Positions 2,357 to 53,847 of a stretch of 64,000 nt of DNA are shown here, piece after piece. The translations under genes and the position numbers were made by a program. How positions within the stretch are numbered: position 1 is the stretch's first letter; each line of letters starts with the position of its first letter. The notes under the pieces were generated by a model that saw nothing but the letters and a program-made list of their open reading frames with translations, did no database searches and had not been told where the DNA came from. The DNA is from an uncultured Bdellovibrionales bacterium (lineage in GTDB: Bacteria; Patescibacteriota; Minisyncoccia; Moranbacterales; UBA2206). The stretch is taken from assembly GCA_964406815.1 (NCBI GenBank), contig CAYOTC010000003.1, forward strand, positions 7,259 through 71,258, given 5' to 3'.

Positions 2357-3199
2357 ATGGAAGGTAATACAATAAATGGGAAAAAGTTGGCGGAAAAACT
2401 GAGAGCTGAGATAAAATCAGATGTTTTAGGCTTGAAAGAGCGAAATATAGTGCCTGGATTGGCGGTTGTTCTGGTGGGAAATGACGAAGCTTCCGAGCTT
2501 TATGTCCACAAGAAAGAGGAGGCCTGCAAGGAATTGGGCATAGAATCTTTCATTCATAAAATGCCGGAAAATACGAATGAAGAAGAACTGCTTAGCCTGA
2601 TTTCCAGCCTTAATAATAACAACAAAGTGAGCGGTATTTTAGTTCAGTTGCCGCTTTCAAAGTCTATCAATGAGGAAAAAGTCATAAATCTGATAGATCC
2701 CAAGAAGGATGTCGATTGTTTCCATCCGGAAAATTTCGGTCTTCTGATGCGGAATGAGCCGAGATTTCTGCCTTGTACTCCGGCCGGGATAATGGAGCTT
2801 ATGTCTGAATACAAGATCAGTTTGGAAGGAAAAAATGTCGTGATTATCGGTCGGAGCAATATTGTCGGAAAACCGTTGGCGGCGATGCTTATGAATTATG
2901 ATGCGACAGTGACTCTTTGCCATTCAAAAACAGTAAATCTGAAAGCGGAATGTCTGCGGGCGGATATTCTTATTTCTTCCGTTGGAAAAACGGGAATAAT
3001 TACGGCTGATATGGTGAAGGAAGGAGCGGTTGTTATTGATGTTGGAACACGCCGATCGGAAGATGGAAAGCTTTTAGGAGATGTTGATTTTAAGAATGTT
3101 TCAAAAAAAGCGAGTCTTATTACGCCGGTTCCCGGAGGAGTAGGACCGATGACGGTTACAATGCTAATGAAGAATGTTATTAAGGCCAGTCAATTATAA
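2357..3199 (+). CDS. folD: bifunctional methylene-THF dehydrogenase / methenyl-THF cyclohydrolase
   Basis: N-terminus INGKKLAEKLRAEIK...LAVVLVGNDEASELYVHKKEEAC and the C-terminal NAD(P) fold (GKNVVIIGRSNIVGKP...PVPGGVGPMTV); ATG at 2357 is preferred over the TTG at 2336. Confidence 0.9.
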   Translation: MEGNTINGKKLAEKLRAEIKSDVLGLKERNIVPGLAVVLVGNDEASELYVHKKEEACKELGIESFIHKMPENTNEEELLSLISSLNNNNKVSGILVQLPLSKSINEEKVINLIDPKKDVDCFHPENFGLLMRNEPRFLPCTPAGIMELMSEYKISLEGKNVVIIGRSNIVGKPLAAMLMNYDATVTLCHSKTVNLKAECLRADILISSVGKTGIITADMVKEGAVVIDVGTRRSEDGKLLGDVDFKNVSKKASLITPVPGGVGPMTVTMLMKNVIKASQL

Positions 3200-6000: not shown

Positions 6001-6513
6001 ATGGACAAGAAAATTATTGAATTTAATAAGACTCAAAAAAGAAGTGATATGCAAAAATTCCGAACTGGAGATGTTGTTAATGTTTCTCTTCGGATTAAGG
6101 AAGGTGAAAAAGAGAGAACTCAAAATTTTGAAGGATTGATTATTGCGGTAAAAGGCGGACAGAGCTCAACGCAAATAATCACTGTCAGAAAAGTTTCCCA
6201 TGGAGTCGGAGTGGAACTCATAATTCCGGTTGGTTCAAAAAATGTTGAGAAAATTGAGCTTATTAAGAAAGCCAAGGTTAGAAGAGCGAAGCTTTATTAC
6301 ATCCGTAACCTCACCACCAAACAGAGCCGTATGAAATATAAAGATATCGAGACTTTTATAAAAGACGAAGAAGCTGGAACTCCCGGAGCGTCTAATGTTG
6401 AAAATATTACAGAAAATTCTTCAGAGAATATCGAGGATAAGGTTTCGGAAGTTAAAACTGCAGAAGTTAAAGCTGAAGAAAAGAACGAGGAAAAGACTGA
6501 AGAGAAAAAATAA
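6001..6513 (+). CDS. rplS: 50S ribosomal protein L19 with a ~55-aa acidic/lysine-rich C-terminal extension
   Basis: FRTGDVVNVSLRIKEGEKERTQNFEGLIIAVKG...TVRKVSHGVGVE...KVRRAKLYYIRNL; ATG at 6001 (MDKKIIEF) preferred over the upstream alternative start at 5947. Confidence 0.85.
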   Translation: MDKKIIEFNKTQKRSDMQKFRTGDVVNVSLRIKEGEKERTQNFEGLIIAVKGGQSSTQIITVRKVSHGVGVELIIPVGSKNVEKIELIKKAKVRRAKLYYIRNLTTKQSRMKYKDIETFIKDEEAGTPGASNVENITENSSENIEDKVSEVKTAEVKAEEKNEEKTEEKK

Positions 6514-7132: not shown

Positions 7133-7867
7133 ATGCAAAAAATACATGTATGGCTAGCTTCGCTTCTTATTATAACCGTAGGGGCGATTGTGATTGTGGC
7201 ATTGGTGATGGCTAATAAAAATAAAGACAGAGAATATTTTTCTGTTTCTGGAATCGCTTCTGTTTATGCGAAGGCTGATATTGCCAATATCAATGTCGGT
7301 TTGAAAAGCGGAACTATGAAGACAGCCGCAGAAGCCTCCCAAGAGAGCGCGAAAAAAATGAATAGTATTATTGAAGAATTGAAAAATCTTAAAATTGAAG
7401 AAAAAGATATTAAAACCAGCGATTATAATTTAAATCCGATTTATAATTGGACTGAGAGCAAGGGACAAGAATTGAGCGGATATGAAGTGACGCAAACACT
7501 GAGTCTGAAAATCAGAGATTTGAATATGATTGGAGATGTTATTTCAATGACGACGCAAAAAGGAGCTAATCAAATTGGCAATATTAATTTTACTATTGAT
7601 GACGAATTTGATTTGAAAAATCAAGCGCGAGAATTGGCTATTAAAAAAGCCAAAGAAAAAGCGATTCTGATCGCCAATCAGTCCGGAATGAAATTGGGAA
7701 AGATAAAAAATGTTATTGAAAATTATAATACTCCGATTTATCCGACATATGCGAACGCTAAAATTGATGGAGCAGGCGCTGGTCGAGAAGACGTCTCTGC
7801 GCCGGAGATTCAAACCGGTCAGAATGAGATAAAAATTGAAGTGACTCTTTCTTATGAAGTAAAATAG
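7133..7867 (+). CDS. SIMPL / DUF541 domain protein (periplasmic oxidative-stress-type protein)
   Basis: N-terminal TM anchor; NVGLKSGTMKTAAEASQESAKKMNSIIEELK...SGYEVTQTLSLKIRD is typical of the SIMPL family. Confidence 0.65.
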   Translation: MQKIHVWLASLLIITVGAIVIVALVMANKNKDREYFSVSGIASVYAKADIANINVGLKSGTMKTAAEASQESAKKMNSIIEELKNLKIEEKDIKTSDYNLNPIYNWTESKGQELSGYEVTQTLSLKIRDLNMIGDVISMTTQKGANQIGNINFTIDDEFDLKNQARELAIKKAKEKAILIANQSGMKLGKIKNVIENYNTPIYPTYANAKIDGAGAGREDVSAPEIQTGQNEIKIEVTLSYEVK

Positions 7868-37929: not shown

Positions 37930-38007
37930 TGCTTCTCTCAGGTTAAAATTTAAAGACCCGTATATCGTTTACGGGCCTTTTTTTATTACAAAAGTTTTTT
38001 AGATTTT

Positions 38008-39570
38008 TTAATTTTGCAAAGTGAAAATCAAGCTGTCTCCAGTAATCTCTTTTGGTTTTTCAATTTCCATTAGTTCCAAAATGGTGGGAGTAATATCACT
38101 CAGTATCCCTTCGACTCTGATTGGACTTTCTGGATTTTCTGTTTCAGAATGATTTTCTCCAGTAATAAGCCAGAGCGGAACGGGGTTGGTGGAATGCTCA
38201 GTATCCGGTTCGCCGGTTTTTCTGTTTATCATTTCTTCGGCATTACCATGATCGGCAGTAACCAATAAGCAACCTTTTTGGTGCAAGACTTCCTGGATAA
38301 GTTTTCCGAGGCATTCGTCTACAGTTTCAATAGCTTTTATGCCAGCTTTTAAATTTCCAGTATGTCCAACAATATCAGCATTGGCATAATTAATTAAAAT
38401 AAAATCGTATTTATTTTCTTTAACAAAATTAATCACTTTTTCGGTTATTTCGAAAGCACTCATTTCCGGCGCCTCAACGAAAGTCGCTACATTTTTTGAA
38501 GGAACTATGACACGATCCTCTCCTGGAAATGGTTCTTCTTTTCCTCCGTTGAAAAAATAAGTTACATGGGCAAATTTTTCAGTTTCAGAAATGCGAAGTT
38601 GTCTTTTATTATGCTTGCTTAAAATTCCTCCAAGACATTCTTTAATTTCAATTGGAGGATAGGCAACTTCAGTCGGAAGATCGGCTTCATATTCTACCAT
38701 CGAAACGAAAAGAAGATTTTTAATTTCTTTTCTTTCGAATTTATTAAATCCCGGCAAGACAAAAGCCTTGGTTATTTGTCTGGCGCGGTCTTCTCGGAAA
38801 TTAAAGAAAATTATCGCATCGTTGTCGCTTATCTTAGTCAGTGGCTTGCCATCTTTCAAAATAACAGCCGGTTCGATATATTCGTCGAATACTTCTCTTT
38901 TATATGACTCCTCAAGATATTTTATCGGATCTTCTATCTGTTCTCCTTCACCGGAAACCATTGATTTGTAAGCTTTTTCAATCCGGTCCCAGTTGTTATT
39001 TCGATCCATCCCGAAATATCTTCCGCCAAGCGTGGCAATTTTTCCGATTCCATATGTTTTTAAGCGTTCTTCGAGTTCTCGAATGCATTCCACATCCGCA
39101 GTCGGTGAAGAATCACGTCCATCAGTGAAAATATGCAAAAAAACATTTTCCGCTTTCTGGTCGCGCATAAGTTCTAGCATGGCATAAAGATGGTCGGTAG
39201 TCGAATGGATTCCACCTTTTCCCAACAGTCCCATTATATGAAGATTGGAAGAATTTTTTTTAGTGTGTTCGATGGCTTTCAAAAAAGATGGATTTTTGAA
39301 AAAATTTCCGCTTTGGATATCCAAAGTGATGCGTGGCATATTTTGGTAAATAACCTGTCCGGTTCCGAGCGAAATATGTCCAACCTCCGAATTTCCCGGT
39401 TCTCCCCAAGGAAGCCCGACGGAAATACCGGAAGCTTGGATAGCTATATGTGGATAAAAACTATTTAACTTATCGGCGGTAGGAGTATTAGCTTCAAGGA
39501 CTGCGTTACCTTTTTCTGCTTCTCCTATCCCCCAACCATCTAAGATTACTAAAATAACTGGTTTATACAT
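38008..39570 (-). CDS. gpmI: 2,3-bisphosphoglycerate-independent phosphoglycerate mutase
   Basis: MYKPVILVILDGWG N-terminus and metalloenzyme-domain motifs. Confidence 0.9.
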   Translation of the reverse strand: MYKPVILVILDGWGIGEAEKGNAVLEANTPTADKLNSFYPHIAIQASGISVGLPWGEPGNSEVGHISLGTGQVIYQNMPRITLDIQSGNFFKNPSFLKAIEHTKKNSSNLHIMGLLGKGGIHSTTDHLYAMLELMRDQKAENVFLHIFTDGRDSSPTADVECIRELEERLKTYGIGKIATLGGRYFGMDRNNNWDRIEKAYKSMVSGEGEQIEDPIKYLEESYKREVFDEYIEPAVILKDGKPLTKISDNDAIIFFNFREDRARQITKAFVLPGFNKFERKEIKNLLFVSMVEYEADLPTEVAYPPIEIKECLGGILSKHNKRQLRISETEKFAHVTYFFNGGKEEPFPGEDRVIVPSKNVATFVEAPEMSAFEITEKVINFVKENKYDFILINYANADIVGHTGNLKAGIKAIETVDECLGKLIQEVLHQKGCLLVTADHGNAEEMINRKTGEPDTEHSTNPVPLWLITGENHSETENPESPIRVEGILSDITPTILELMEIEKPKEITGDSLIFTLQN

Positions 39571-39809
39571 ATTTTTCTTATTTATCTTTTATAGAAATTT
39601 TCCTAAGGCAATAACTGGATATAATAATACCACTTTAAGCCGTCTTTGACAAAAATCTTTTGCTGTAATAGTATTTAGTAAGAATATAATTTATTAAAAA
39701 CTAGTCTGGTTATATTGATAAACAAGTCAGAAAAAGCATAAAAAGCCTTATCTTAGACAAAATTATAATAATGAGCTTATGATTTATCAATCGAACAGAA
39801 AAAAAACAT

Positions 39810-41342
39810 ATGGAAGTGAGTTTAACGATTCTTGGAGTCGTAATTTTATCTTTGGCAGTGGGTTCATTTTTAGGTTACTATACAAGACAGACAATCGCTA
39901 AGAAACAACTACATACCGCCGAAGGACGGGCTACTAAACTTATTGAAGAATCTGAGAAAAAATCTCAGGAGCTTGTGCTTGAGGCAAAAAACAAGGCTTT
40001 AAACATACTTGAAGAAGCTAAGAAAAAGGAGCAAGAAAGGGAAAATCAACTGATGCGTTTTGAGGAGAGATTGGAAAAAAGAGATGCGACTATTGACACT
40101 AAGATGGCTGAGATTGAAAAGGGCAAAGTGGCATTGGAAAAGAAAGCGGAAGAAATCAGAATGATCAGAAAAGAAGTGGATGAAACCAGAAAGCAGGAAC
40201 TTAAGAGGTTGGAAAAAATCGCTGAACTTTCCAAGGAATCAGCCAAAAAAATCCTTCTTCAACTTACTGAAGAGGAAAATCGGGAAATGATTGTCAAAAA
40301 AATTAAGCAATTGGAAGTTAGTGGACGAGAAGAACTTGAAAAGAAAGCTCGGGACATTATGACTCAAGCGATTCAAAAATATGCGGGATCGCACGCAGCA
40401 GATGTGACAACCAGCACAGTGAGCATTCCTTCTGATGAAGTTAAGGGAAGGATTATCGGAAGAGAAGGGCGCAATATTAAAGCACTGGAAAGACTTACCG
40501 GAATTGAAATTATCGTAGATGATACGCCGGAAGCGATTGTTATTTCCGGATTTGATCCGGTCCGAAGGGAAACTGCCAGAATTGCGATTGAACGACTCAT
40601 AAGCGATGGACGCATACATCCGACCAAAATTGAAGAAGCGGTTGAATTTGCTAAGAATGAAATTAATAATAAGATTCGCGAAGCTGGAGAAGCGGCTGCC
40701 TATGATGTAGGAGTAGCCGGACTTGATCCGAAACTCGTTCATATTCTCGGACGTCTGCGTTATAGAACCAGTTACGGTCAAAATGCGCTGCTGCACTCTC
40801 TTGAGGTGGCACATCTTTCCGGAGCGTTGGCAGCAGAACTCGGATGCGATGTTACTTTGGCTAAGAAAGCCGGGCTCCTTCACGATATCGGGAAAGCTAT
40901 TGATCATGAAGTACAAGGAACTCATGTGGAAATCGGAATAAAGATTTTGGAAAAATTCCATGTTGATAAAGAAATAATTGAAGTGATGAAATGTCATCAT
41001 GAAGATTACCCATTTTCTTCTCCGGAATCGATGATTGTTTCAGCGGCTGACGCGATTTCTGCCAGTCGTCCGGGAGCCAGAAAAGATACTTTAGAAAATT
41101 ATCTCAAACGTCTGGAAGAACTTGAAGCGGTGGTTAATTCTTTTGAAGAGGTGGAAAAAACTTATGCGATCCAAGCGGGAAGGGAAATTAGAGTATTTGT
41201 AAAACCCGATAAAGTTGATGATCTTGGCGCTATCAAACTTTCTAAAGCTATCGTAGAAAAAATTGAAAAAGAATTGAAATATCCAGGGGAAATAAAGATA
41301 AATGTTATTCGGGAAACCAGAGTGGTGGATTATGCAAGATAA
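39810..41342 (+). CDS. rny: ribonuclease Y
   Basis: N-terminal TM, coiled coil, KH domain (GRIIGREGRNIKALE), HD domain (HSLEVAHLSGALAAELG...HDIGKA). Confidence 0.9.
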   Translation: MEVSLTILGVVILSLAVGSFLGYYTRQTIAKKQLHTAEGRATKLIEESEKKSQELVLEAKNKALNILEEAKKKEQERENQLMRFEERLEKRDATIDTKMAEIEKGKVALEKKAEEIRMIRKEVDETRKQELKRLEKIAELSKESAKKILLQLTEEENREMIVKKIKQLEVSGREELEKKARDIMTQAIQKYAGSHAADVTTSTVSIPSDEVKGRIIGREGRNIKALERLTGIEIIVDDTPEAIVISGFDPVRRETARIAIERLISDGRIHPTKIEEAVEFAKNEINNKIREAGEAAAYDVGVAGLDPKLVHILGRLRYRTSYGQNALLHSLEVAHLSGALAAELGCDVTLAKKAGLLHDIGKAIDHEVQGTHVEIGIKILEKFHVDKEIIEVMKCHHEDYPFSSPESMIVSAADAISASRPGARKDTLENYLKRLEELEAVVNSFEEVEKTYAIQAGREIRVFVKPDKVDDLGAIKLSKAIVEKIEKELKYPGEIKINVIRETRVVDYAR

Positions 41343-41348
41343 TAGATT

Positions 41349-41378
41349 AAGTTCATAAAGTTTATAAAGTTTGTAAAG
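41349..41378. repeat. three tandem copies of a 9-bp unit AGTTYRTAA immediately after the rny stop
   Basis: aagttcataa agtttataa agtttgtaa ag; same unit recurs after rpoB at 58961..59000. Confidence 0.55.
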
Positions 41379-41559
41379 AATAGATAAAATCCAGTAGTTA
41401 TAAGCCTAAAAAGCTAATCAGCTAACAAGCTAAAAATTTGCTTGGTAACTGTGCATAAAATCGATTTGCTTTATTTGAGGCAAAAGATGTAGAATATATA
41501 AGTAAGCTATTCAAGTTTTAGAAAATTAGTAAAATATTTATTTGAAAGGAGGTGGCACT

Positions 41560-41844
41560 ATGGCAAACAATATAAACAAGGATGCTTTGGTAACAGCAAT
41601 CAGCGGAAAAACTGAGCTTTCCAAGAAAGATATTGAGCTCGTTATTGACACTATGACTGAAGAGATTACAAAATCTCTCCAAGCTGGTGACAAAGTTACT
41701 TTGACAGGTTTTGGAACTTTTAGAATTTCTGATCGCGCAGCTCGCGAGGGAATCAATCCTCAGACCAAAGAGAAAATCCAGATTCCTGCTATGAAAGTTC
41801 CTAAGTTTACTGCCGGAAAAGCATTGAAAGAAGCCGTGAAATAA
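41560..41844 (+). CDS. hup: HU-family nucleoid DNA-binding protein
   Basis: GFGTFRISDRAAREGINPQTKEKIQIPAMKVPKFTAGKALKEAV; RBS GGAGG before the ATG at 41560. Confidence 0.85.
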   Translation: MANNINKDALVTAISGKTELSKKDIELVIDTMTEEITKSLQAGDKVTLTGFGTFRISDRAAREGINPQTKEKIQIPAMKVPKFTAGKALKEAVK

Positions 41845-42010
41845 TTACAATATCGAACTTGTTTTCTTTTTTAAGATAACAAGCAAGAAGATAGCGGTGA
41901 AATCCCTGGAAACAGGGATTTTGCTTTAGGGGGATAAAATATTGTTTTATTGACGGATGGGATTTTTCTCGTTATGATGGACTAGTTAATTGTTGCAAGA
42001 AAATTATAAA

Positions 42011-42081
42011 CGGAGCGTGGTGTAGTGGTAGCACGAGTGGTTTGGGACCATTTAGCCCGAGTTCGACTCTCGGCGCTCCGA
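42011..42081 (+). tRNA. tRNA-Pro (anticodon TGG)
   Basis: Acceptor CGGAGCG/CGCTCCG, anticodon loop TTTGGGA. Confidence 0.8.
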
Positions 42082-42088
42082 CAGGAAT

Positions 42089-42128
42089 AGTATTTAGTAT
42101 TTCGTATTTAGTATTTTGTATATTGTAT
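42089..42128. repeat. 7-bp tandem repeat (GTATTTN) x5
   Basis: agtattt agtattt cgtattt agtattt tgtatat tgtat, between tRNA-Pro and tRNA-Gly. Confidence 0.5.
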
Positions 42129-42272
42129 CCGGCTAAGAACGGATTCTTGATTTTTTCTAATGATTGCGATATTCTAGATAAGGATTAAAGTTGAAAATTT
42201 AATAGAAGTTCGCCTTTGCGGACTACTAAGCGGGATTGCCTCGCCGTAGTCACGCTAGAGGCGTGAATAGAA

Positions 42273-42344
42273 GCGGGTGTCGTATAGTGGCTATTATATC
42301 AGCCTTCCAAGCTGAGGAGGGGGGTTCGATTCCCCCTACCCGCT
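42273..42344 (+). tRNA. tRNA-Gly (anticodon TCC), used as the integration site
   Basis: Acceptor GCGGGTG/TACCCGC, anticodon stem TCAGC/GCTGA with loop CTTCCAA; the last 17 nt are repeated at 50884..50900. Confidence 0.85.
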
Positions 42345-43949
42345 CAACATAGTAGAAACAGCTTCCAAATGAGCTGTTTTTGCTTTTTCAGAAGCAAATT
42401 CTGCTGGTTCTAACGCGCCAAATTCAACCTTGATCAAATTCACACCGTTTTGGATTAGTTCATATTGTTTTTGCAGTTGAATGCTCAATTTTTGGTCTTT
42501 AAGAACAAAGTTAGAACCTAATGCTCTCAAAATTGCTGACTTATCTTCATAAGTTCCCTCCGAAAACCAATACTTGCTGTAAGTTGCAAACTTAAATGTT
42601 TTTTCTGTTAGATCTATCCATTCGTTTATTCTTTCGTCTAAATTTTTAAGTTCTCGCTGAATCCCGGACTTTTCTTTAAGCAGAACAGATTTCTGTTCCC
42701 TAAATTCTTCGTCGGATAGCAATTCTCTGTTGGCATTATCAGAAGATATGTAAAGCTTGATAAGATTATCTATCCTTTTTGTGCAGTCAATAAACGCTTT
42801 CTGCTGATTTTTAATCAAAAGCTCTCTATTGACACTCTCTTTTTCATTTTCCCTGTTCAAAATTTCAATGGCAAGGTTGAAATAACTTTCTGGTATGGAA
42901 ATACTATCTATAATTTGGAATGCTTGGCTTTCCAGCTCTGAATAGTTTATGGGTTTTTGGTTACAGGTTATTCCGGCTTTTCTTTTTGTGCAACGGTGAT
43001 AGATGTATGAATGTATCTTTCCCTCCGATTTTACATACTTGGTCTTTTCGTCCGCAGTTATTGCACAACCGCATTCTCCACAAAATATCAATCCAGTTAA
43101 AGGAAGTTTCTTATGCTTCGCGCGCGGCTTTCCTTTTCTTCCCAATATTTTCTGAACCTGATCATATTCTTCTGGTGTAATCATTATTTTATGTTGTCCC
43201 TGATAAACTTTTCCGGCGTATTCAAATTCCCCATAGTAAAAAGTGTTTGTGAAAATCCGGTAGATGTGCGACAAGCTCAATCTCGTTTGCCTTTTGTAAT
43301 AGCTGGTGCGAAGTCCCCATTGGTCATTAACTATTTCAGCTATTTGAGGAACTGTATAGTTTCCAGTAAGCATTAGTTCCCACATTTTTCTTACTAAATT
43401 AAATTTTTTCTCATCAACTAAAATTTCCTTGCTTCCCTTATCTTGATACCTGTCATTTAAATATCCTATCGGAGCAAGTCCCGGACGCCAACCCTTTTCT
43501 GCTTTTGATACAAGCCCTCTTTTTACATCTTTGGATAAATCAAGGACAAACTGGTTTGCCATTCCCAATTCAACACTCATCATCATCACATTATCTCCCG
43601 TCCTATATTCGCGTGAGGGCGTCTGAATTGAGCGTAGGGAGCTTTCTTGCAATAACCACTGTATTTCACCCCCATCAATCGGATTTCGGGAAAGGCGGTT
43701 GATTTTCCAACAAAGTATTCCATTTGCTCCGCCTCTTTTAATTTCCTCCAACATCTTATTAAATTCAATTCTGCCGGGAGCTTTGGCTGATTTATTTTCC
43801 TCATAAAAACCAACTACTTCCAAATTAAGCAGTTTGGCGTATTTTTCCAGCTCTTTGCGCTGATCTTCAATGGATTGAATCTGCCGATCTTCTGAATCGG
43901 TAGATTTTCTTAAATACATAAGATATTTAATTTTTTCTGAATTCTCCAT
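42336..43949 (-). CDS. large serine recombinase (resolvase catalytic domain, recombinase domain, Zn ribbon, coiled coil)
   Basis: N-terminus YLRKSTDSEDRQIQSIEDQR with catalytic Ser, ...GILCWKINRLSRN; CxxC pairs (CGECGC...C); C-terminal coiled coil; 3' end overlaps the tRNA-Gly 3' end. Confidence 0.85.
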   Translation of the reverse strand: MENSEKIKYLMYLRKSTDSEDRQIQSIEDQRKELEKYAKLLNLEVVGFYEENKSAKAPGRIEFNKMLEEIKRGGANGILCWKINRLSRNPIDGGEIQWLLQESSLRSIQTPSREYRTGDNVMMMSVELGMANQFVLDLSKDVKRGLVSKAEKGWRPGLAPIGYLNDRYQDKGSKEILVDEKKFNLVRKMWELMLTGNYTVPQIAEIVNDQWGLRTSYYKRQTRLSLSHIYRIFTNTFYYGEFEYAGKVYQGQHKIMITPEEYDQVQKILGRKGKPRAKHKKLPLTGLIFCGECGCAITADEKTKYVKSEGKIHSYIYHRCTKRKAGITCNQKPINYSELESQAFQIIDSISIPESYFNLAIEILNRENEKESVNRELLIKNQQKAFIDCTKRIDNLIKLYISSDNANRELLSDEEFREQKSVLLKEKSGIQRELKNLDERINEWIDLTEKTFKFATYSKYWFSEGTYEDKSAILRALGSNFVLKDQKLSIQLQKQYELIQNGVNLIKVEFGALEPAEFASEKAKTAHLEAVSTMLSG

Positions 43950-44210
43950 AGATATTTAATTTAAGAATACTAAAAGGACGGACTGGTTGACCCAACTTAC
44001 CACGAATGATTTGTCGGCAGTCCGCCCTTTTAGGACGACAAAAAACAAAAATTCGTGGAATTTGATTGGGTCAACACTTAAATTATAGTGTAAATGTTAA
44101 CATTTGTCTACATTTTCTGATATTTTAAACCGTAACAATATTATTTTGTAAATGCTATCATTTGCTATCATATTCAGATATTTTGATATGTATAATACCA
44201 TCATTTACCA

Positions 44211-44459
44211 CTATTCTCTGATATTTTCTATGCGTAGCGCGTATTCTCGTAAACTATCATCTAACAATATCAGTCCTTGATTTTCCACCAAAATTGCCAA
44301 TTCAGTCCAGTTCATACCATATGATATTTTTCTTGCATAGCTATCGCTAAAACCAGCTTTCAATGCAGATCTGTAATAATTATGGCAAGTTTCACTTTCC
44401 GGAGAAAAATAATAGCGCGCAAATTCCAGTTTTCTTTCTGATAGTTTATATCTATTCAC
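44211..44459 (-). CDS. phage terminase small subunit-like HTH protein (Terminase_2-type N-terminal domain)
   Basis: LSERKLEFARYYFSPESETCHNYYRSALKAGFSDSYARKISYGM matches the conserved TerS pattern L(T/S)xKQxxFxxxY...AxxxAGYSxxxAR. Confidence 0.5.
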   Translation of the reverse strand: MNRYKLSERKLEFARYYFSPESETCHNYYRSALKAGFSDSYARKISYGMNWTELAILVENQGLILLDDSLREYALRIENIRE

Positions 44460-44576
44460 AAAATATAAATAATTTATTTACCCTTATTTAGAGGAATAAT
44501 ATAGATTATAGTTATTACTACAGTATTTATCTAAAGTAATGAGGTGCAATTTGTATTACTATAGTATTCAACTTAT

Positions 44577-44891
44577 TTAATGTTCTTTAACTATCGGCAT
44601 ACTTGCGTAATCATACTGCCTTAATACTTCGTCAGAAATCTTTTTCCAAAGCGTTTTTTCAACAAGTAAATATTTAAAAGGCGGAAATCTTCTTTGTGGC
44701 ACTTGAACATTTAACCCACCATATTGGCTTTTCCAAACTGTAAAACCAGTGATTGTAAAATATTGTCCGGTAATCCCTCTGAAAGAAACCGTAGCATTGG
44801 CAAGCAAATTAGGGTGTCTTTTGGAATTTTTGTCTGAAAATGGCTTGACCTTACAAACAAACTCATTAAGATCAATTTGTGTGTTTTGCAT
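44577..44891 (-). CDS. SpoVG-like protein, putative
   Basis: NLLANATVSFRGITGQYFTITGFTVWKSQYGGLNVQVPQRR resembles the SpoVG core (...[23 protein letters not shown]); remembered similarity only. Confidence 0.35.
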   Translation of the reverse strand: MQNTQIDLNEFVCKVKPFSDKNSKRHPNLLANATVSFRGITGQYFTITGFTVWKSQYGGLNVQVPQRRFPPFKYLLVEKTLWKKISDEVLRQYDYASMPIVKEH

Positions 44892-44917
44892 ACTAATTTA
44901 AATTTTAATAATTATTT

Positions 44918-45202
44918 TTAGTTTATTTCTCCCCGCCTCGTTTTTGATAAGGCGTTTAGCCACTTTAAATTGCTTTGTGGCACAAAAATCAGGATAGCAT
45001 CTGGCATAACAGTGCCTCCGGATACAAATTCTCGCTCGTTAATCTTTGCTGGCTTGGGTTCTCTCATAAATCGGCACTTGTCTTGATTCCTACCACTTCT
45101 CAAATGGAGTTCAGGGTCTAATGGACAAAAGTTTTGGGAGCAACTCTTAAAATGCGGACATTTCCCCATATTATCTGTAAATGATTGGCATTGTTTTTTC
45201 AT
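44918..45202 (-). CDS. small Cys-rich hypothetical protein
   Basis: 94 aa with seven Cys (e.g. CPHFKSC, CSQNFC), likely metal-binding. Confidence 0.4.
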   Translation of the reverse strand: MKKQCQSFTDNMGKCPHFKSCSQNFCPLDPELHLRSGRNQDKCRFMREPKPAKINEREFVSGGTVMPDAILIFVPQSNLKWLNALSKTRRGEIN

Positions 45203-45449
45203 AGGATTTTAATCTTAATTTATTAGAAAACGCTTCATAATTTGTTTTTTTGATTGGCTTATAAACCCTTTTTAATAGCCCCACCAAATTTCTGATGCAT
45301 TCAAAAGATTCTTCGGAAGAAATAGCTTGTCCGGTTTCAATTTTATATAGTTTTTGGAATTTTTTTGCGTCAGATTCAGTGATCATTTTTTTAGTTATAA
45401 ATTCTTCCTTTTGTTTCTTTTTGGATTGAGATAAACTTTTTTGGTTCAA
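45171..45449 (-). CDS. small hypothetical protein (overlaps neighbours, phage-like packing)
   Basis: 92-aa basic ORF. Confidence 0.3.
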   Translation of the reverse strand: MNQKSLSQSKKKQKEEFITKKMITESDAKKFQKLYKIETGQAISSEESFECIRNLVGLLKRVYKPIKKTNYEAFSNKLRLKSYEKTMPIIYR

Positions 45450-45624
45450 CCAATAGTTTATTTTGATAAAAATTTTCTAAAATTTTCTCAGTATCCTCTT
45501 GTTTTTCCAAATGGAAAATGCACCGATTAGCATTACTTTTATCAACTTTGATTAGCTGGTGATTGAGATATTGCAAAACTACGCAGATATTTAGATCGGA
45601 AGTTTGAAAAAATTTTCTAATCAT
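45391..45624 (-). CDS. small hypothetical protein
   Basis: 77-aa ORF overlapping 45171..45449 in another frame. Confidence 0.3.
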   Translation of the reverse strand: MIRKFFQTSDLNICVVLQYLNHQLIKVDKSNANRCIFHLEKQEDTEKILENFYQNKLLVEPKKFISIQKETKGRIYN

Positions 45625-45697
45625 AATTTTTGTAACTAAAAAAGCATACTTTCAGTATGCTCTTTTTAATGGTTCTGTCGTTTTTATCTACCTATTT

Positions 45698-46462
45698 CTA
45701 CCTATTCCCATTTTTAAAGTTTCCTAATTCATTTTTTAATTTTGTTATGTCTATCGGATCAATAACCGTTACTTGCTTGATCAATCTAATTTTCTGTTTG
45801 GCGACATTGAATAGATACTTCCTCAAAGCTCCTTTTATTTTTATATCATTCAAAAAATTATTGAAGGGCTTTATTTCCCTTTTTAATTCTTCCTTTAATT
45901 CGCTTTTTAAAAACACTTTTCCATCATTTTCAAATAAAAAGGCGATAATTGAATCATTTGAAGATTCAAAATCTGGTCTTGCAATTAAAATATTATTTAT
46001 TTTTATTTCCCTTGTTTTTTCATTATAGTCCAATCTTAAATCAAATATGGGAGAATTATTTACCTGAAAGTTTTTTAGAAATTCTGCAATTTTTTTTGGA
46101 TAAAATTTGCATTTGGCTCTCAAAAGAATATAATTAACATCTTTAAGATGAGCTTCATTGATCTGTTGCAAATAATCTATTGGATCAAAATACCTTTCTT
46201 CCACCAGTTGGGAATCGTCCGGTTCATATTTTTCAAGTTTATAGCTTACAATAACGTTCTTTCCTTTTAAATATTTGAGTTCATTTTCCTTATCCCACGC
46301 ATAATCAAAATTATCATAATCGCCCAGTATAACATTACCTGTTTGTATGTTTTTGCCAATTCTCTTATTTTTTATCCCTTTTTCTAATTGATCAATAATT
46401 TGTTTTAGAATTACAGGATTTGGCTCGGTGGTTTTTTCTGTTTTCTTGTTTACGTTTGCCAT
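45698..46462 (-). CDS. hypothetical protein (largest non-integrase gene of the leftward module)
   Basis: 254-aa ORF, no recognised motif. Confidence 0.45.
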   Translation of the reverse strand: MANVNKKTEKTTEPNPVILKQIIDQLEKGIKNKRIGKNIQTGNVILGDYDNFDYAWDKENELKYLKGKNVIVSYKLEKYEPDDSQLVEERYFDPIDYLQQINEAHLKDVNYILLRAKCKFYPKKIAEFLKNFQVNNSPIFDLRLDYNEKTREIKINNILIARPDFESSNDSIIAFLFENDGKVFLKSELKEELKREIKPFNNFLNDIKIKGALRKYLFNVAKQKIRLIKQVTVIDPIDITKLKNELGNFKNGNR

Positions 46463-46736
46463 TTTAATGTCATTTTAATTTCTTTTATTTTAACCCTGAT
46501 TTTGCCCAATATCAAGCAAAAAGTTGTTTTTTTGTCTATCTTGTATTAAAGTATAGATGTCTATACATTCACATAAGTTCAGAAGTGGAAACACTATTTT
46601 AGTGTTATTGATCGTGATTTTAAGCGGGCGACTCCGACGACACGATCAGACCACTTCGGTGATTTTGTGAGTGTATAGACCGTCGGGTCGTCCACTCAAA
46701 AGAACTTCCTGACGGCTTAACTATTAAGTCGTTTTT

Positions 46737-47978
46737 ATGTTCAAGAAAATAGTAATTATCCCATTATTTTTACTTCTTCCCCTATTCTCCTACGCCTCTG
46801 ATAATAGACTTTTGGATCAATATGATGAATGGAAAGCGGAGCAAGACGAAAAGACATCAGTAAACCAAGCCGACGAAACCAAACAAGAAAACGGACAACC
46901 CACATTGTATAGAAATGATGATTATAAATTCAGAATAAATTTTCCTGCCGGTTGGGAGTTAAAAGATGGCGATGGCAAACACGTTGTCAAAAAAGCTGTC
47001 AAAGATGGTTGCACTGTCCTTGTTTTGGTTAAAGATTCACAAGAAGAAAAAAACACATTATCCACAAACGAAAGAGCTGAATTAAATTCTTTTGAGTTTA
47101 GCGATTTTTCCGATGAAGAAGCGGATGAGCTCATAAACGAAATGATCAAAGAAAATGAAACTGCTTTCCCTGGTAGTAAAACGATTGAAAAAGGAATTAG
47201 ATATTTGGATAACCGCAAGGCGGGTTATTATAAAGTTTCCACTCCCTATAAAGTAGCTAATATTGAAGCAAAAGCTATTGCTATCAATTATTTGACGATT
47301 CATAAGGGCAGATTTTATCAAATTATTGGATCATACCCGATAGAGCCAGTAACCGAACAAAATAAAGAGCCAGTTATAAATGCTTCTTTAATGACTTTTG
47401 TTTTTGAAGATTGGAACAATCAAGATAATGTTAATTCTATTTCTGAAAATTCAAACAATCCAGTTAAAGAGGCTCTTTTAGATTCTTATGGTGAAAATCT
47501 TAATAACTTTGGATTATTTTTGGCTGTAATTTTAAGCATCTTATTTACTTGGGGGTTTGGTCTTTTAATTCCAGTATTGATTCGCTTTGTTTTTTTGAAA
47601 AGACCTCTTTCAGGGGGGTTATCTTTTTTGATTGTTTTTATCACTTATTTAATCCAGTTTTCAATTCCATATCTTATAGGTGATATAAAAAGTGAGGATA
47701 GACCTCGCATTGCACTAATTCTCGTTGCTTTTGTTGCTTATAAGATATTAAGAAAAAAAGTATCTAATAAAATAAACAATGAAGAAAGCGATATTAGCAA
47801 AGAAGAAATAATTAAATATTGTAAAGAATGTGGCAATAAGATCAATGCTTCATCTACAATTTGCGATAAATGTCATATCCAAAAATCCAAAAAAAGACGG
47901 AAAGAATTATTATTAGCGTTTTTAGCTATTGTCTTGATTACAATGTTAATACTATTTGTAGCCATATTGTTTAGTTAA
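46737..47978 (+). CDS. signal-peptide membrane protein with cytoplasmic zinc ribbon
   Basis: Signal peptide MFKKIVIIPLFLLLPLFSYA; three TM helices; CKECGNKIN...CDKCH; terminal TM. Confidence 0.5.
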   Translation: MFKKIVIIPLFLLLPLFSYASDNRLLDQYDEWKAEQDEKTSVNQADETKQENGQPTLYRNDDYKFRINFPAGWELKDGDGKHVVKKAVKDGCTVLVLVKDSQEEKNTLSTNERAELNSFEFSDFSDEEADELINEMIKENETAFPGSKTIEKGIRYLDNRKAGYYKVSTPYKVANIEAKAIAINYLTIHKGRFYQIIGSYPIEPVTEQNKEPVINASLMTFVFEDWNNQDNVNSISENSNNPVKEALLDSYGENLNNFGLFLAVILSILFTWGFGLLIPVLIRFVFLKRPLSGGLSFLIVFITYLIQFSIPYLIGDIKSEDRPRIALILVAFVAYKILRKKVSNKINNEESDISKEEIIKYCKECGNKINASSTICDKCHIQKSKKRRKELLLAFLAIVLITMLILFVAILFS

Positions 47979-48000
47979 AAATTTCAATAAGAATAAAAAT

Positions 48001-48297
48001 ATGATTTGTAAAAAATGCCAAAAAGAAATAGATGATGATAGCAAATTCTGCGAATTTTGTGGAAATAAATTGGTAGAAAACACCAAGGATATAGCGCACA
48101 GAATTATAAAAACCGAACATAAGGAAGATAAGCTTCGTTTTTATACGAAAAATACAATTTTAATTTTTTCCGTCCTGATGGTAACCAGTTTTTTCCTTGA
48201 GAATTATTTTGGCGATAATGGTCTTATTTTGTCTATTCCAGCAACAATTTTAATAATTTTTATTTATAACAAGATTGCTAAAAAATTTAATTTATGA
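48001..48297 (+). CDS. zinc-ribbon plus TM small protein
   Basis: CKKCQKEIDDDSKFCEFCGNKL then two hydrophobic helices. Confidence 0.45.
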   Translation: MICKKCQKEIDDDSKFCEFCGNKLVENTKDIAHRIIKTEHKEDKLRFYTKNTILIFSVLMVTSFFLENYFGDNGLILSIPATILIIFIYNKIAKKFNL

Positions 48298-48854
48298 AAA
48301 TGATAAAAAACTTTTTTCAAAATAACAGAACTGCTCTGCTTGCAATAGTTATAACAGTAGTAGCAACTTCGGCAGTCGCATACGGTTTTTTTGTGATAAA
48401 AAACGAAAGGAAAAGTGCCAATCAGAGAGTTGAAGCCTTGCAAAAATCAGTGGAAGAATTACAAGCCAAAAATGAGACAAATCAAGAAATAAGCGAAGAG
48501 CCAGAAAAGGATATTCCTGTTGAAGAAACTTCTGTTCAACAATCCCCGATAGTCAAAAAGAGCGCGGTGGTTGCTCCAATAAAAACCGAGGAGGCGGAAG
48601 AAAAGCTAGTATCCTGTGTAGCTTTTAACGGTGATACCCTTAAGGTTAGCAAGGATGAATGTGATGAAATAAAGCAGAAGAATGTTATAGCTCAAAAAGC
48701 GTTGGATAAATATGAAGAATGTATTTCAAGCGCAGAAGAAGAATTTCAAGAAAATTTAAAAAGTGGTTACAGCTCGTCTTATCCGGAAGAATACAATAGG
48801 AGTGTTAATGAATGCGCAGAAGAAAGAAATGCGAAATTAGAAAAACTTTTGTAG
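48294..48854 (+). CDS. membrane-anchored coiled-coil protein, hypothetical
   Basis: N-terminal TM, coiled coil, Cys-containing C-terminus; start overlaps the previous stop (ATGA). Confidence 0.45.
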   Translation: MKMIKNFFQNNRTALLAIVITVVATSAVAYGFFVIKNERKSANQRVEALQKSVEELQAKNETNQEISEEPEKDIPVEETSVQQSPIVKKSAVVAPIKTEEAEEKLVSCVAFNGDTLKVSKDECDEIKQKNVIAQKALDKYEECISSAEEEFQENLKSGYSSSYPEEYNRSVNECAEERNAKLEKLL

Positions 48855-48925
48855 TTTCAGTTTTCTTGATTTCTGGCACATATTGGTGATACCATTAAAT
48901 ATCATACGCCTAAAAGCACACTCAT

Positions 48926-49855
48926 ATGCGCCTTAAATTGAAAAAAGCTATGTTTATAACCAGTGCTTTTTGTGCTGTTTTTTTATTTTCCAGTCCGGCT
49001 TTAGCCCATCCGGGGAAAACCGCATCTGACGGATGTCATTATTGCCGAACGAATTGTGACAAATGGGGCGTTCCGTGGAATCAGAGGCATTGCCACGGCG
49101 GAAGCGTCAGTCCGCCTACTGTAATCCCAAATCCAGCGCCAAGCAACGGATCAGGCAATGGTTCGGCAACTTCCAATACGCCAGTAACAGAAGTCAAAAA
49201 GTTATGCTCTAATAAAGATACTTGCACAGCCAAAGCCAACATTGTTATTGATGGCGACACGATAGTTTTAGATACGGGCGAAAAAGTTCGTTATATTGGA
49301 ATTGATACTTCGGAAACTGTTGATCCGCGAAAGCCAGTCCAGTGTTTCGGAAAAGAAGCGTCAGAAAAAAATAAAGAGCTTGTGGAGGGTAAGGAGGTTA
49401 GATTGGTTAAAGATATTTCTGATAAAGATAAATACGGACGGCTTTTGAGGTATGTTTATATTGGTGATGAATTTATTAACGATTCTTTGGTTAAAAACGG
49501 ATTTGCTCATTCTTCCAGCTATCCGCCGAACATAAAATACCAAGAGCAATTTAGTAAGTCAGAGGAGGAAGCAAGAAACAATAAAAACGGGCTCTGGGCT
49601 GACGGAGTATGCGGAAATCCGGTTAATGCCGAAACGGAAAACAAACCGGCAGAGCAGGAAAATATAGTCAATCAAGAAGAAATTGTTCAAAATCAGCCGC
49701 AAGACAGTGAAGTTGCTCAAACTACAAATAATACGGAGAATGATATGAATAAACCGGAAAGTAGTAGAGCAAGATTTAGCACAAAAGAAAGAATTTTTAT
49801 GTCATTATCCGGTGCAATCGGGGGGATTTATTACTTCGTAAAATCTATATTATAA
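48926..49855 (+). CDS. secreted staphylococcal-type (thermo)nuclease domain protein with Cys/His-rich N-terminal module
   Basis: Signal peptide ...SSPALA; SNase core VIDGDTIVLDTGEKVRYIGIDTSE...GRLLRYVYIGDEFINDSLVKNGFAH; Gln/Asn-rich tail. Confidence 0.7.
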   Translation: MRLKLKKAMFITSAFCAVFLFSSPALAHPGKTASDGCHYCRTNCDKWGVPWNQRHCHGGSVSPPTVIPNPAPSNGSGNGSATSNTPVTEVKKLCSNKDTCTAKANIVIDGDTIVLDTGEKVRYIGIDTSETVDPRKPVQCFGKEASEKNKELVEGKEVRLVKDISDKDKYGRLLRYVYIGDEFINDSLVKNGFAHSSSYPPNIKYQEQFSKSEEEARNNKNGLWADGVCGNPVNAETENKPAEQENIVNQEEIVQNQPQDSEVAQTTNNTENDMNKPESSRARFSTKERIFMSLSGAIGGIYYFVKSIL

Positions 49856-49864
49856 AAACACTCA

Positions 49865-50602
49865 ATGTCAGAGAATAATCCAAATATTAGTTTTGATATT
49901 ATTGATATTTTGTTAAAGACAGGATCTCTTTTGGGCTTTGTAGCATTCTTTTATACTTTAAGAATAAATGCCAGAAATGTGCCAAAATTTTATTTTGATT
50001 TCGGACATTTTTCCGGAATAAACAAGCTAAATAGCTCTGATGGAAAAATACACTTCGCGTGCACTTTTGGTGGAACAATAATCAATCAAAGTTCCGAAAG
50101 TAATTACATAAAAAAGATCTACTTAGCTGTCTGGGAAAACACTAAAAAACGAGATAAAACCTTAAGATTTGGTTACGGTGGCATAGATAAGATTAACGAC
50201 AAAGTTACGGAAGAGGATTTAGAACTACCCATAGAATTCAAACCCAAAGAGGGCAAACGAATTGAAATTAGATTTCTGCAACAAGCTACAGGAACTTGTG
50301 ATGAAAAACTTATTGAAGAAGCTAAGCCGGTAGCGTATATACTTCCAACCAATCCAATCCTTAGATTATTTGCCAAAAATAAGCATAGTATTTGCAGAAG
50401 TGGATATGAATTAGTTTTTGAAGATACAAAAGGCAATATGTTTGATCAAAAGGGCAAAATTATAAGCGGAAAGGTATTAAATTTAACCTGGACACTTTCA
50501 AGTTACAAAGGAATGAAACGAATTAGACAAGAAGTTAAAGTGCGCTATTATAAGTTAACTTTCTACCTTAAATCAGTTTTTATGAAACTTGGTTTCTTTT
50601 AG
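49865..50602 (+). CDS. membrane-anchored hypothetical protein
   Basis: N-terminal TM (ILLKTGSLLGFVAFFYTL), soluble domain. Confidence 0.45.
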   Translation: MSENNPNISFDIIDILLKTGSLLGFVAFFYTLRINARNVPKFYFDFGHFSGINKLNSSDGKIHFACTFGGTIINQSSESNYIKKIYLAVWENTKKRDKTLRFGYGGIDKINDKVTEEDLELPIEFKPKEGKRIEIRFLQQATGTCDEKLIEEAKPVAYILPTNPILRLFAKNKHSICRSGYELVFEDTKGNMFDQKGKIISGKVLNLTWTLSSYKGMKRIRQEVKVRYYKLTFYLKSVFMKLGFF

Positions 50603-50710: not shown

Positions 50711-50740
50711 TCCAGGATTTATTCCTGGATTTTTTCTTTT
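50711..50740. terminator. bidirectional rho-independent terminator
   Basis: TCCAGGATTTATTCCTGGA flanked by an A-run and a T-run. Confidence 0.6.
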
Positions 50741-50883
50741 GGTCGAGGAGTGGAATCGAACCCGGCAGAAGCGAGATGCGATCCGCCATTGGCGGATAGT
50801 AATCAAGCGCCGGAAAATTCGAGCGAGTGAGGATTTTCCGCTGCCGAGGGCAACGAGTCTCGCCGCGGCGGGACGAGGCGATA

Positions 50884-50900
50884 GATTCCCCCTACCCGCT
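50884..50900 (+). repeat. attR: 17-bp copy of the tRNA-Gly(TCC) 3' end (GATTCCCCCTACCCGCT)
   Basis: Exact direct repeat of 42328..42344. Confidence 0.75.
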
Positions 50901-51387: not shown

Positions 51388-51663
51388 ATGGTAAGACCAA
51401 GAATGTGCCGAAGATTGAGATTTAAACCAAAGGCGCACTATTTTAAGCCCCAAGGAATTCCGATGAATCAATTGGAAGAAACTGTTTTAACTAAAGAAGA
51501 AATGGAGGCGATAAAGCTCAAAGATTTTGATGGATTGGAGCAAATTGAAGCTTCAGAAAAAATGAATACTTCCCAAAGTACTTTTCAGCGAATCCTGTCT
51601 TCTGCCAGAGTTAAAATTGCCAGGGCGGTTGTCAATGGTGAGGCCTTAAGGATTGAAGAATGA
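51388..51663 (+). CDS. DUF134 / UPF0251-family predicted DNA-binding protein
   Basis: MVRPRMCRRLRFKPKAHYFKPQGIP...EAIKLKDFDGLEQIEASEKMNTSQSTFQRILSSARVKIARAV. Confidence 0.65.
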   Translation: MVRPRMCRRLRFKPKAHYFKPQGIPMNQLEETVLTKEEMEAIKLKDFDGLEQIEASEKMNTSQSTFQRILSSARVKIARAVVNGEALRIEE

Positions 51664-53100: not shown

Positions 53101-53847
53101 ATGATTTCAAAAAAAATATCAATAATTCTTATCACTTTAATTATCGGCTTAGTTTTTGTTGCTGGCGGATTTATGTTTTTCAGAAAAACTCGCACAGAAA
53201 CAATAATTTTGCCAAATAATCAGGAAGAAAATAAAATTAAAGAGGAAAAGCAAATAGCAGAAAATAGCGTTAAGGAAACAAAAGAGGAAATTATAAAGGA
53301 AGCCAAGGAGGAAAGTGAGATTCCAAAGAAGGAATCTGCAAATGAGATAACAAAAAAACCTGAAATCCAAGAAGAAAATAAAAGCGATTTGAAAATAAAC
53401 GACAAGCTCATCAGTTGGGGATATGCGTCTTCCGATTCACGAAAGATTGATACAATTATCATCCATTCATCTTACGATGCTTTGGGAGATGATCCATTCA
53501 GTGTAAACGGGATAATCGCGGAATATAAGCAATACGGTGTTTCGGCCCATTATCTCATCGGTCGCGACGGAAAAATTTATCGCTTGGTCAAGGATAAAGA
53601 TATTGCCTATCATGCCGGAGTTTCAAAAATGCCGGACGGCAGAACCGGAGTTAATAATTTTTCCATCGGAGTTGAAATTGTGAACACTAAAACAGGAAAA
53701 ATTACTGCTGAGCAATATTCTTCTCTAAAAAAATTAATCGCTGAAATTAAAGGAAAATATAGCATAAAATATGTTCTCGGTCACAAAGATATCGCTCCGG
53801 ACCGGAAAGACGATCCTTGGGGATTTGATTGGAATAATATAAAATAA
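53101..53847 (+). CDS. N-acetylmuramoyl-L-alanine amidase (Amidase_2 / PGRP fold), membrane-anchored
   Basis: N-terminal TM; IIIHSS...AHYLIGRDGKIYRLV...AYHAGVS...GVEIVN...VLGHKDIAPDRKDDPWGFDW. Confidence 0.85.
   Translation: MISKKISIILITLIIGLVFVAGGFMFFRKTRTETIILPNNQEENKIKEEKQIAENSVKETKEEIIKEAKEESEIPKKESANEITKKPEIQEENKSDLKINDKLISWGYASSDSRKIDTIIIHSSYDALGDDPFSVNGIIAEYKQYGVSAHYLIGRDGKIYRLVKDKDIAYHAGVSKMPDGRTGVNNFSIGVEIVNTKTGKITAEQYSSLKKLIAEIKGKYSIKYVLGHKDIAPDRKDDPWGFDWNNIK

Follow-up and report, generated by a model that had tools for sequence, protein, structure and literature searches.

A short protein with a small-terminase-type helix-turn-helix encoded upstream of the serine integrase gene of a tRNA-Gly island

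A small DNA-binding protein encoded beside the integrase gene is a familiar feature of mobile elements, examples being AlpA/Xis in PICIs and P4 and Cox/Apl in P2/186, where the protein serves as recombination directionality factor (RDF) and repressor. Terminase-derived genes also occur on small integrase-bearing islands: the small terminase subunit (TerS) of SaPIs and PICIs redirects the packaging of the helper phage. PICI TerS proteins are full-length terminase subunits and are encoded in the packaging module, far from int. In phages such as SPP1 and P22, pac sites often lie beside or inside the terS gene. The RDFs of HP1 and P2 double as repressors. Those of large serine integrases have been recruited from phage proteins of diverse structure and bind the integrase rather than DNA (PMC11795197).

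The locus described here was found in a stretch of 64,000 nucleotides, which was analysed as a whole (the window). It encodes a short protein with a TerS-type DNA-binding domain, named mini-TerS, on an integrase-bearing island. Patescibacteria-type bacteria are poorly characterised for mobile elements, and we found no description of such islands in these bacteria in the literature. A small helix-turn-helix (HTH) factor next to an integrase is a known kind of protein; the terminase origin of the present one, seen in the comparisons below, is unusual.

The mini-TerS gene and the ancestry of its DNA-binding domain

An earlier sequence-only reading of this DNA had described the open reading frame correctly with respect to position and length, and the peptide quoted there corresponds to residues 6-49 of mini-TerS. 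Six close homologues (85-86 aa; 68-73 % identity, alignment A1) have an ATG at the position of the mini-TerS start codon. Pairwise dN/dS was approximately 0.13-0.3 for most pairs, with a maximum of 0.43, and was low in the N-terminal and C-terminal halves alike. The coinciding starts and the low dN/dS values indicate that the open reading frame is a genuine, conserved gene under purifying selection.

With the single mini-TerS sequence as query, no matches were obtained in Pfam, NCBIfam and PDB (phmmer), and a tblastn search of 50,697 phage records yielded nothing or faint matches only. In PHROG the top match was phrog_17390 (E 0.006), a 69-position profile of phage proteins with no annotated function, and the TerS family phrog_51 was detected only faintly (E 0.19). 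Because the single-sequence searches were empty or faint, profiles were required. A mini-TerS family profile made from seven sequences was scored against 1.84 billion representatives and found 87 proteins with an E-value of 1e-3 or better. A few of these are 73-99 aa long; the remainder are mostly 100-250 aa, typically 130-200 aa, and the longer ones align mainly over about 50 residues near the N-terminus. When the 87 proteins and the mini-TerS query were scanned, PF03592 (Terminase_2, Pfam) was matched by 48 of the 88 sequences, phrog_51 by 39 and phrog_17390 by 50. The phrog_17390 family appears to be built on the same TerS-type HTH as mini-TerS.

A joint/extended profile matched the solved SF6-like TerS structures 3zqp (E 6e-9) and 3zqq in the PDB, as well as the isolated DNA-binding domain of SF6-like TerS (2cmp, 4zc3). 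Comparison by hhalign of 14 short proteins with 16 long TerS-like relatives (the nine checked ones adjoin terL) gave 99.3 % and an E-value of 1.7e-20, over residues 7-48 only. The AF2 model of mini-TerS (pLDDT 77) consists of five helices, with H1 (residues 8-18), H2 (28-34) and H3 (39-48) in the DNA-binding domain. Searching the model with Foldseek ranked the SF6 G1P DNA-binding domain first in the PDB and gave mostly TerS matches in BFVD, the E-values being weak in both cases. Sigma region 4 chains ranked below the SF6 TerS chains, and no unrelated HTH family outranked TerS in Pfam or among the fold matches.

Taken together, the profile matches, the hhalign result and the fold matches show that the HTH of mini-TerS is terminase-derived, residues 7-48 being homologous to the N-terminal HTH of SF6/SPP1-type small terminases such as G1P from Bacillus phages (PF03592; 3zqp, 3zqq, 2cmp, 4zc3). 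The motif common to G1P and mini-TerS is L-S-x-K-x-x-F-x-x-Y-Y ... N-x-Y-x-S-A-L-K-A-G-Y-S-x-S-Y-A. By these comparisons the resemblance to TerS goes far beyond chance, but it is seen only with profiles. The proposal of the sequence-only reading that the N-terminus is a TerS-type HTH was thus borne out by hhalign, PF03592 and 3zqp; structure prediction agreed, and the confident assignment to an unrelated HTH family (sigma-70 region 4, for example) that would have spoken against it did not arise. The expected match to PF03592 was obtained with the profile of the relatives, whereas the single mini-TerS sequence stayed under the Pfam threshold. The DNA-binding surface is the most conserved portion of the protein, and the putative recognition helices RSALKAGYSDSYARKI have stayed alike between elements in which the remaining proteins have diverged.

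The same reading had described the protein as a DNA-binding domain and little else, which fits the confinement of the TerS homology to residues 7-48. The final 34 residues are conserved within the subfamily and specific to it. No alignment of this part to TerS was obtained, and the central helical oligomerisation domain, which forms the ring, is absent. The TerL-binding C-terminal region is absent by length, mini-TerS having 82 aa and TerS proteins such as G1P 140-190 aa. Mini-TerS itself does not pass the curated TerS models of Pfam and NCBIfam, nor does it reach more than the faint phrog_51 match given above. In contrast to G1P, it has no adjacent terL: this gene was not found in the 8.6-kb element, and mini-TerS does not lie in a head-packaging module. 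It would seem, judging from these absences, that everything that makes a terminase subunit has been lost and only the DNA-binding head has been retained.

The island and the neighbours of mini-TerS

The features of the locus are collected in Table 1, in which related elements are denoted by L numbers.

Table 1. Positions of features in and around the mini-TerS island (window coordinates)
Feature	Position	Strand	Basis or remark	Counterparts in related elements
HU-RNase Y-iPGM-ClpP-trigger factor locus	38000-42350		host locus	L071
tRNA-Gly(tcc), integration target	42273..42345	+	3' end supplied by element (left junction)	
Large serine recombinase, 537 aa	42336..43949	-	Pfam Resolvase, Recombinase, Zn_ribbon_recom; phrog_95 integrase	
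Conserved structured leader in the integrase mRNA (helices P1 and P2, apical hairpin, loop-to-tail pairing)	43947..44077	-		L001 5926-6050; L003 10391-10520; L006 10298-10420; L051 3508-3633; L053 6653-6803; L061 720-833; L065 433-554; L066 4240-4390; L069 5862-5995; L070 5884-6003
Integrase promoter P_int, TAGACA-17-TATAAT	44082..44110	-	11/12 consensus positions, best in 42-47 kb	
Two palindromes AAATGWTAWCATTT	44092-44105, 44150-44163 (span 44092..44163)	.	only matches with <=1 mismatch in window	
Three direct boxes AAATATCWGARWAT	44213-44226, 44170-44183, 44112-44125 (span 44112..44226)	-		L001, L003, L051, L061, L065, L053
Mini-TerS gene, 82 aa, GTG start	44211..44459	-	ORF list, homologues, dN/dS	
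Two helices, codons 49-82	44214..44315	-	specific to integrase-linked subfamily; not aligned to TerS oligomerisation domain	
TerS-type HTH, codons 7-48	44316..44441	-	hhalign, PDB 3zqp/2cmp/4zc3, AF2 model	
Promoter-like site TAGATA-17-TATAAT upstream of mini-TerS	44505..44533	-	10/12 consensus positions; consensus match only	
Upstream genes, same transcription direction as mini-TerS	44577..46462	-		
SpoVG-like	44577-44891	-		
Cys-rich	44918-45202	-		
p92	45171-45386/45449	-		L070 5697-5867; L071 5785-5964; L069 3246-3413
DUF5659	45391-45624	-		
p254	45698-46462	-		
Second conserved structured non-coding block	46600-46736	+	upstream of membrane-protein gene	L001 ~3000-3180 (-); L003 ~7535-7720 (-); L006 ~6310-6437 (-)
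Divergent cargo: membrane protein, zinc-ribbon protein, p186, secreted SNase-type nuclease, p245	46737..50602	+		
Membrane-protein gene, 413 aa	46737-47978	+		protein common to L001, L006, L051
Right-end GC-rich block	50740-50880	+		
Displaced tRNA-Gly 3' fragment GATTCCCCCTACCCGCT, right junction	50884..50900	+	0 expected by chance	
DUF134/sigma-region-4-like small protein	51388-51663	+	just outside island	
Amidase_2 cell-wall hydrolase	53101-53847	+	just outside island	

The stop codon of the recombinase gene falls within the tRNA-Gly gene, and at the right junction the final 17 nt of this tRNA are repeated. On the basis of the second 3' copy, and of the similar terminator hairpin that follows both copies, the island is about 8.6 kb long and extends from the tRNA-Gly to the displaced fragment (approximately 42.33-50.90 kb). 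The element has defined att ends and an integrase, and mini-TerS lies within it, 261 nt upstream of the recombinase gene and on the same strand. Near the right end, the GC-rich block holds an inverted fragment resembling a tRNA 3' end with CCA, which reads TGGTCGAGGAGTGGAATCGAACCC on the + strand; neither ARAGORN nor Rfam detected a gene in this block, which may have been left behind by a previous integration event or may belong to attP.

No packaging, capsid, capsid-remodelling or replication gene was recognised in the element with Pfam, PHROG and NCBIfam, and head-and-packaging PHROG matches were limited to the faint TerS match of mini-TerS itself. A replication module (primase/rep) is present only in the relatives L006, L070 and L071. 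The possibility that the island is a cryptic inovirus, raised by a published account of inoviruses in CPR bacteria, was rejected, as the cargo has no Walker-A or Zot-like morphogenesis ATPase and no matching family hits.

Island DNA is 82-84 % identical to that of L001 in the integrase and membrane-protein genes and 74-78 % identical in the small-gene region, and the host flanks of the two are 67-75 % identical. Source names on the relatives of the recombinase include Candidatus Moranbacteria, Parcubacteria group and Patescibacteria group. L071 shares the host locus of the window (HU to trigger factor, Table 1), with flanking proteins approximately 81-82 % identical. Most likely, therefore, the host of the window island belongs to the Patescibacteria. 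This locus, with tRNA-Gly in the window and in L001, holds different islands in different genomes (integrases 58 % and 88 % identical to that of the window in L071 and L001, respectively), and it looks like a hotspot at which elements of this family integrate. Some of the islands at this locus carry a DnaG-type primase and a large unannotated protein.

The genes adjacent to the relatives of mini-TerS differ between short and long proteins. In nine distinct loci encoding short relatives (73-99 aa) with enough downstream DNA, a large serine recombinase gene is located 150-300 nt downstream on the same strand. These loci are the window copy, L001/L002, L003, L051, L006, L053, L061, L065 and L066/L067; P0009 and P0015, whose contigs end before the downstream gene, are left out of the count. 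The recombinases of the other loci are 24-88 % identical to that of the window, and the targets in the set comprise tRNA-Gly, tRNA-Asp and tRNA-His. Only one copy departs from this arrangement: it comes from a CPR genome, is truncated to 74 aa and has no recombinase nearby. Nine of the ten long relatives tested, all from viral contigs, have terL directly downstream. The conserved partner of mini-TerS is the large serine recombinase, not terL. A scan of IMG/VR viral contigs yielded 42 loci with full-length TerS genes only and no element combining a short gene with an integrase. In three sister elements, whose integrases are 58-66 % identical to that of the window, the 6 kb flanking the integrase gene on each side do not encode mini-TerS, and the upstream slot is occupied by a p92 homologue or by a 180-aa zinc-finger protein.

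All elements of the integrase clade of the window encode the small conserved protein p92, which has approximately 55-71 aa and the motif KKFQxLYxxETGxxIS...VYKPIKK. Since its gene is directly upstream of the integrase gene in two sister elements, p92 is an alternative candidate for an RDF. Restriction-modification genes were noticed in related islands (L003 4224-6254, L053 330-3278), namely a C5 methylase accompanied by an Eco47II-type endonuclease, or else an N6/N4 methylase-Mrr-like nuclease fusion, and L053 also encodes a Schlafen/AlbA_2 protein; the restriction-modification genes suggest defence cargo.

Repeat array, integrase promoter and structured leader

The space between mini-TerS and the integrase gene contains repeats. 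The first of the three AAATATCWGARWAT boxes (44213-44226) falls within the last codons of mini-TerS. Exact copies of AAATATCWGARWAT occur only at these three places in the 64 kb; with up to one mismatch there are 7 matches, against 1.0 expected. Arrays of AAATATCWGAAAAT boxes in the same place and orientation were found in seven of the nine elements with mini-TerS; the three sister elements devoid of the gene have no such array, and the two divergent mini-TerS elements L006 and L066 have no recognisable boxes. The distance between box and -10 differs between elements. Each of the three boxes is followed by a AAATGWTAWCATTT-type palindrome, the third of which is degenerate, and palindromes of this type are present in the window and in close relatives. 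The proximal palindrome (44092-44105) fills the spacer between the -35 and -10 hexamers of P_int, so that the box/palindrome unit nearest to P_int, which is the strongest promoter in this region, borders on it or overlaps with it. Because the array accompanies the gene in seven of nine elements and is missing from all three elements without the gene, mini-TerS and the array go together as a single module before the integrase promoter.

The conserved leader begins a few nt after the -10 hexamer, and the aligned loci share a TATAAT hexamer a few nt ahead of the leader. The leaders of the window and of L006 are 81 % identical at the nucleotide level, though protein identity between these elements is no higher than 34-47 %. 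A loop segment of 16-17 nt is complementary to the 16 nt directly after P1, and this loop-to-tail pairing could form a pseudoknot or act as a switch. Since the register of P2 stayed ambiguous in the covariance-model alignment, covariation was assessed by comparing the energies of duplexes formed within a sequence (cis) and between sequences (trans) for nine loci. The following mean values (within/between, in kcal/mol) were obtained: -15.2/-9.2 for P1, -10.9/-3.2 for P2 and -25.1/-16.7 for the loop-to-tail pairing; in all three the strands paired much better in cis. Compensatory changes back all pairings, and the G-U pairs are compatible with the sense strand only. The covariance model found one copy of the leader upstream of the recombinase gene in 11 distinct element loci, two of them without mini-TerS. 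Rfam has no family for this leader; it could represent a novel class of cis-regulatory RNA that serves serine integrase genes in genomes of Patescibacteria type.

A second structured block precedes the membrane-protein gene. Its identity between elements is 69-78 %; it contains some compensatory pairs and has the motif GGGCG...CGTCC in common with the integrase leader.

Possible roles of mini-TerS

The reading that we favour, with a confidence somewhat short of an even chance, is that mini-TerS works as a DNA-binding regulator of TerS descent, which through the array sets the expression of the integrase. The protein, descended from the N-terminal HTH of an SF6/SPP1-type small terminase, would have kept sequence-specific DNA binding; together with the downstream AAATATCWGAAAAT boxes and AAATGWTAWCATTT palindromes its gene forms a module, flanked on one side by the small-gene operon and on the other by the gene of the tRNA-targeting large serine recombinase with its promoter and leader. 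Mini-TerS, probably as a dimer or higher oligomer formed via its two C-terminal helices, would bind the array and, since the -35/-10 spacer of P_int is taken up by one of the palindromes, would thereby set the level of integrase transcription, whether by repression or by activation. On the integrase level, in turn, it would depend whether the 8.6-kb island is excised or integrated. The restriction of the homology to the DNA-binding domain and the conservation of both the box and the recognition helices are consistent with a regulator. Against it, L006 and L066 have mini-TerS but no recognisable boxes, the box-to-promoter distance varies, the SpoVG-like, the Cys-rich or the DUF5659 protein could bind the array instead of mini-TerS, and an array beside a terS-derived gene is also how a captured pac site would look. 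The sequence-only reading had offered two possibilities, a minimal TerS or a TerS-derived transcription regulator; the integrase partner and the array favour the latter, and the former lacks positive support.

It is unlikely, in our estimate, that mini-TerS is an RDF, which would bind to the large serine recombinase and turn its activity from integration towards excision, like other scavenged phage proteins. The xis-like position directly upstream of the integrase gene, in the same element and on the same strand, has been kept over deep integrase divergence, the last 34 residues are conserved in a subfamily-specific manner, and such a role would fit the literature on scavenged RDFs (PMC11795197). 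However, the absence of mini-TerS from the vicinity of the integrase gene in the three sister elements weakens the idea of an essential RDF, p92 is more widely shared and an equally good candidate, and the most conserved part of mini-TerS is the DNA-binding surface, which an RDF binding the integrase would not need.

We assign a comparably low probability to a minimal satellite packaging factor, which would bind the array as a pac site and recruit the terminase of a helper phage, with transduction of the island as the result. The terminase-derived DNA-binding domain, the repeats beside and inside the mini-TerS gene, where pac sites often lie, the small size of the integrase-bearing island and the Toprim primase-helicase of the relative L006, which resembles PICIs in this respect, are compatible with packaging. 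The sequence-only reading had seen in mini-TerS the key packaging-hijack signature of a PICI-like satellite. This view is not borne out: it is opposed by the missing oligomerisation and TerL-binding regions, by the lack of recognised packaging, capsid, capsid-remodelling and replication genes in the window element, by the strict partnership with the integrase rather than terL and by the operator-like array at the integrase promoter. Moreover, the IMG/VR scan gave full-length TerS genes only. In the 42 viral loci whose full-length TerS is closest to mini-TerS, a search for mimicry of a pac site had a negative outcome, terS having neither box clusters nor palindromes in its vicinity. Quite improbable is the variant in which mini-TerS and the array represent the captured 5' part of a terS gene with its pac site, on a Patescibacteria island that has no structural genes and is packaged by a helper terminase. 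If this were true, TerS would have been reduced to the DNA-binding domain in a satellite, and the island would be, to our knowledge, the first phage satellite described in Patescibacteria.

An anti-phage decoy, defence cargo that would occupy the pac site of an invading phage and block packaging, is very unlikely: restriction-modification genes and a Schlafen/AlbA_2 protein in related islands, the secreted nuclease of the window island and the notion that a DNA-binding domain without the rest of TerS could in principle be dominant-negative would suit it, but mini-TerS has a conserved place in the core and not in the cargo, is tied to the array at the integrase promoter and has no known target phage.

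In the favoured reading, a regulator of the integrase, the locus looks like a case of domain exaptation, in which the DNA-recognition head of a packaging protein became fixed as a core gene of tRNA-targeting serine-integrase islands. Mini-TerS marks a compact control region, consisting of boxes, palindromes, promoter and a covarying RNA leader, that is directly testable and might be useful for serine-integrase tools. The locus also calls for caution, in that a TerS-like motif on an island is not by itself evidence of a phage satellite. Descriptions of TerS-domain proteins as regulator, RDF, minimal satellite TerS or decoy were not found in the literature.

Compared with the TerS proteins of SaPIs and PICIs, mini-TerS comprises the DNA-binding domain only and is encoded beside the integrase gene, in an element with no packaging module. 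Its setting is closer to that of AlpA/Xis and Cox/Apl: like the genes of these integrase-adjacent regulators, the mini-TerS gene immediately precedes int, and an operator-like array is found at the promoter. It differs from them in that its HTH is of TerS origin, with no HTH_17/MerR or other Pfam match, and in that its partner is a large serine recombinase and not a tyrosine recombinase.
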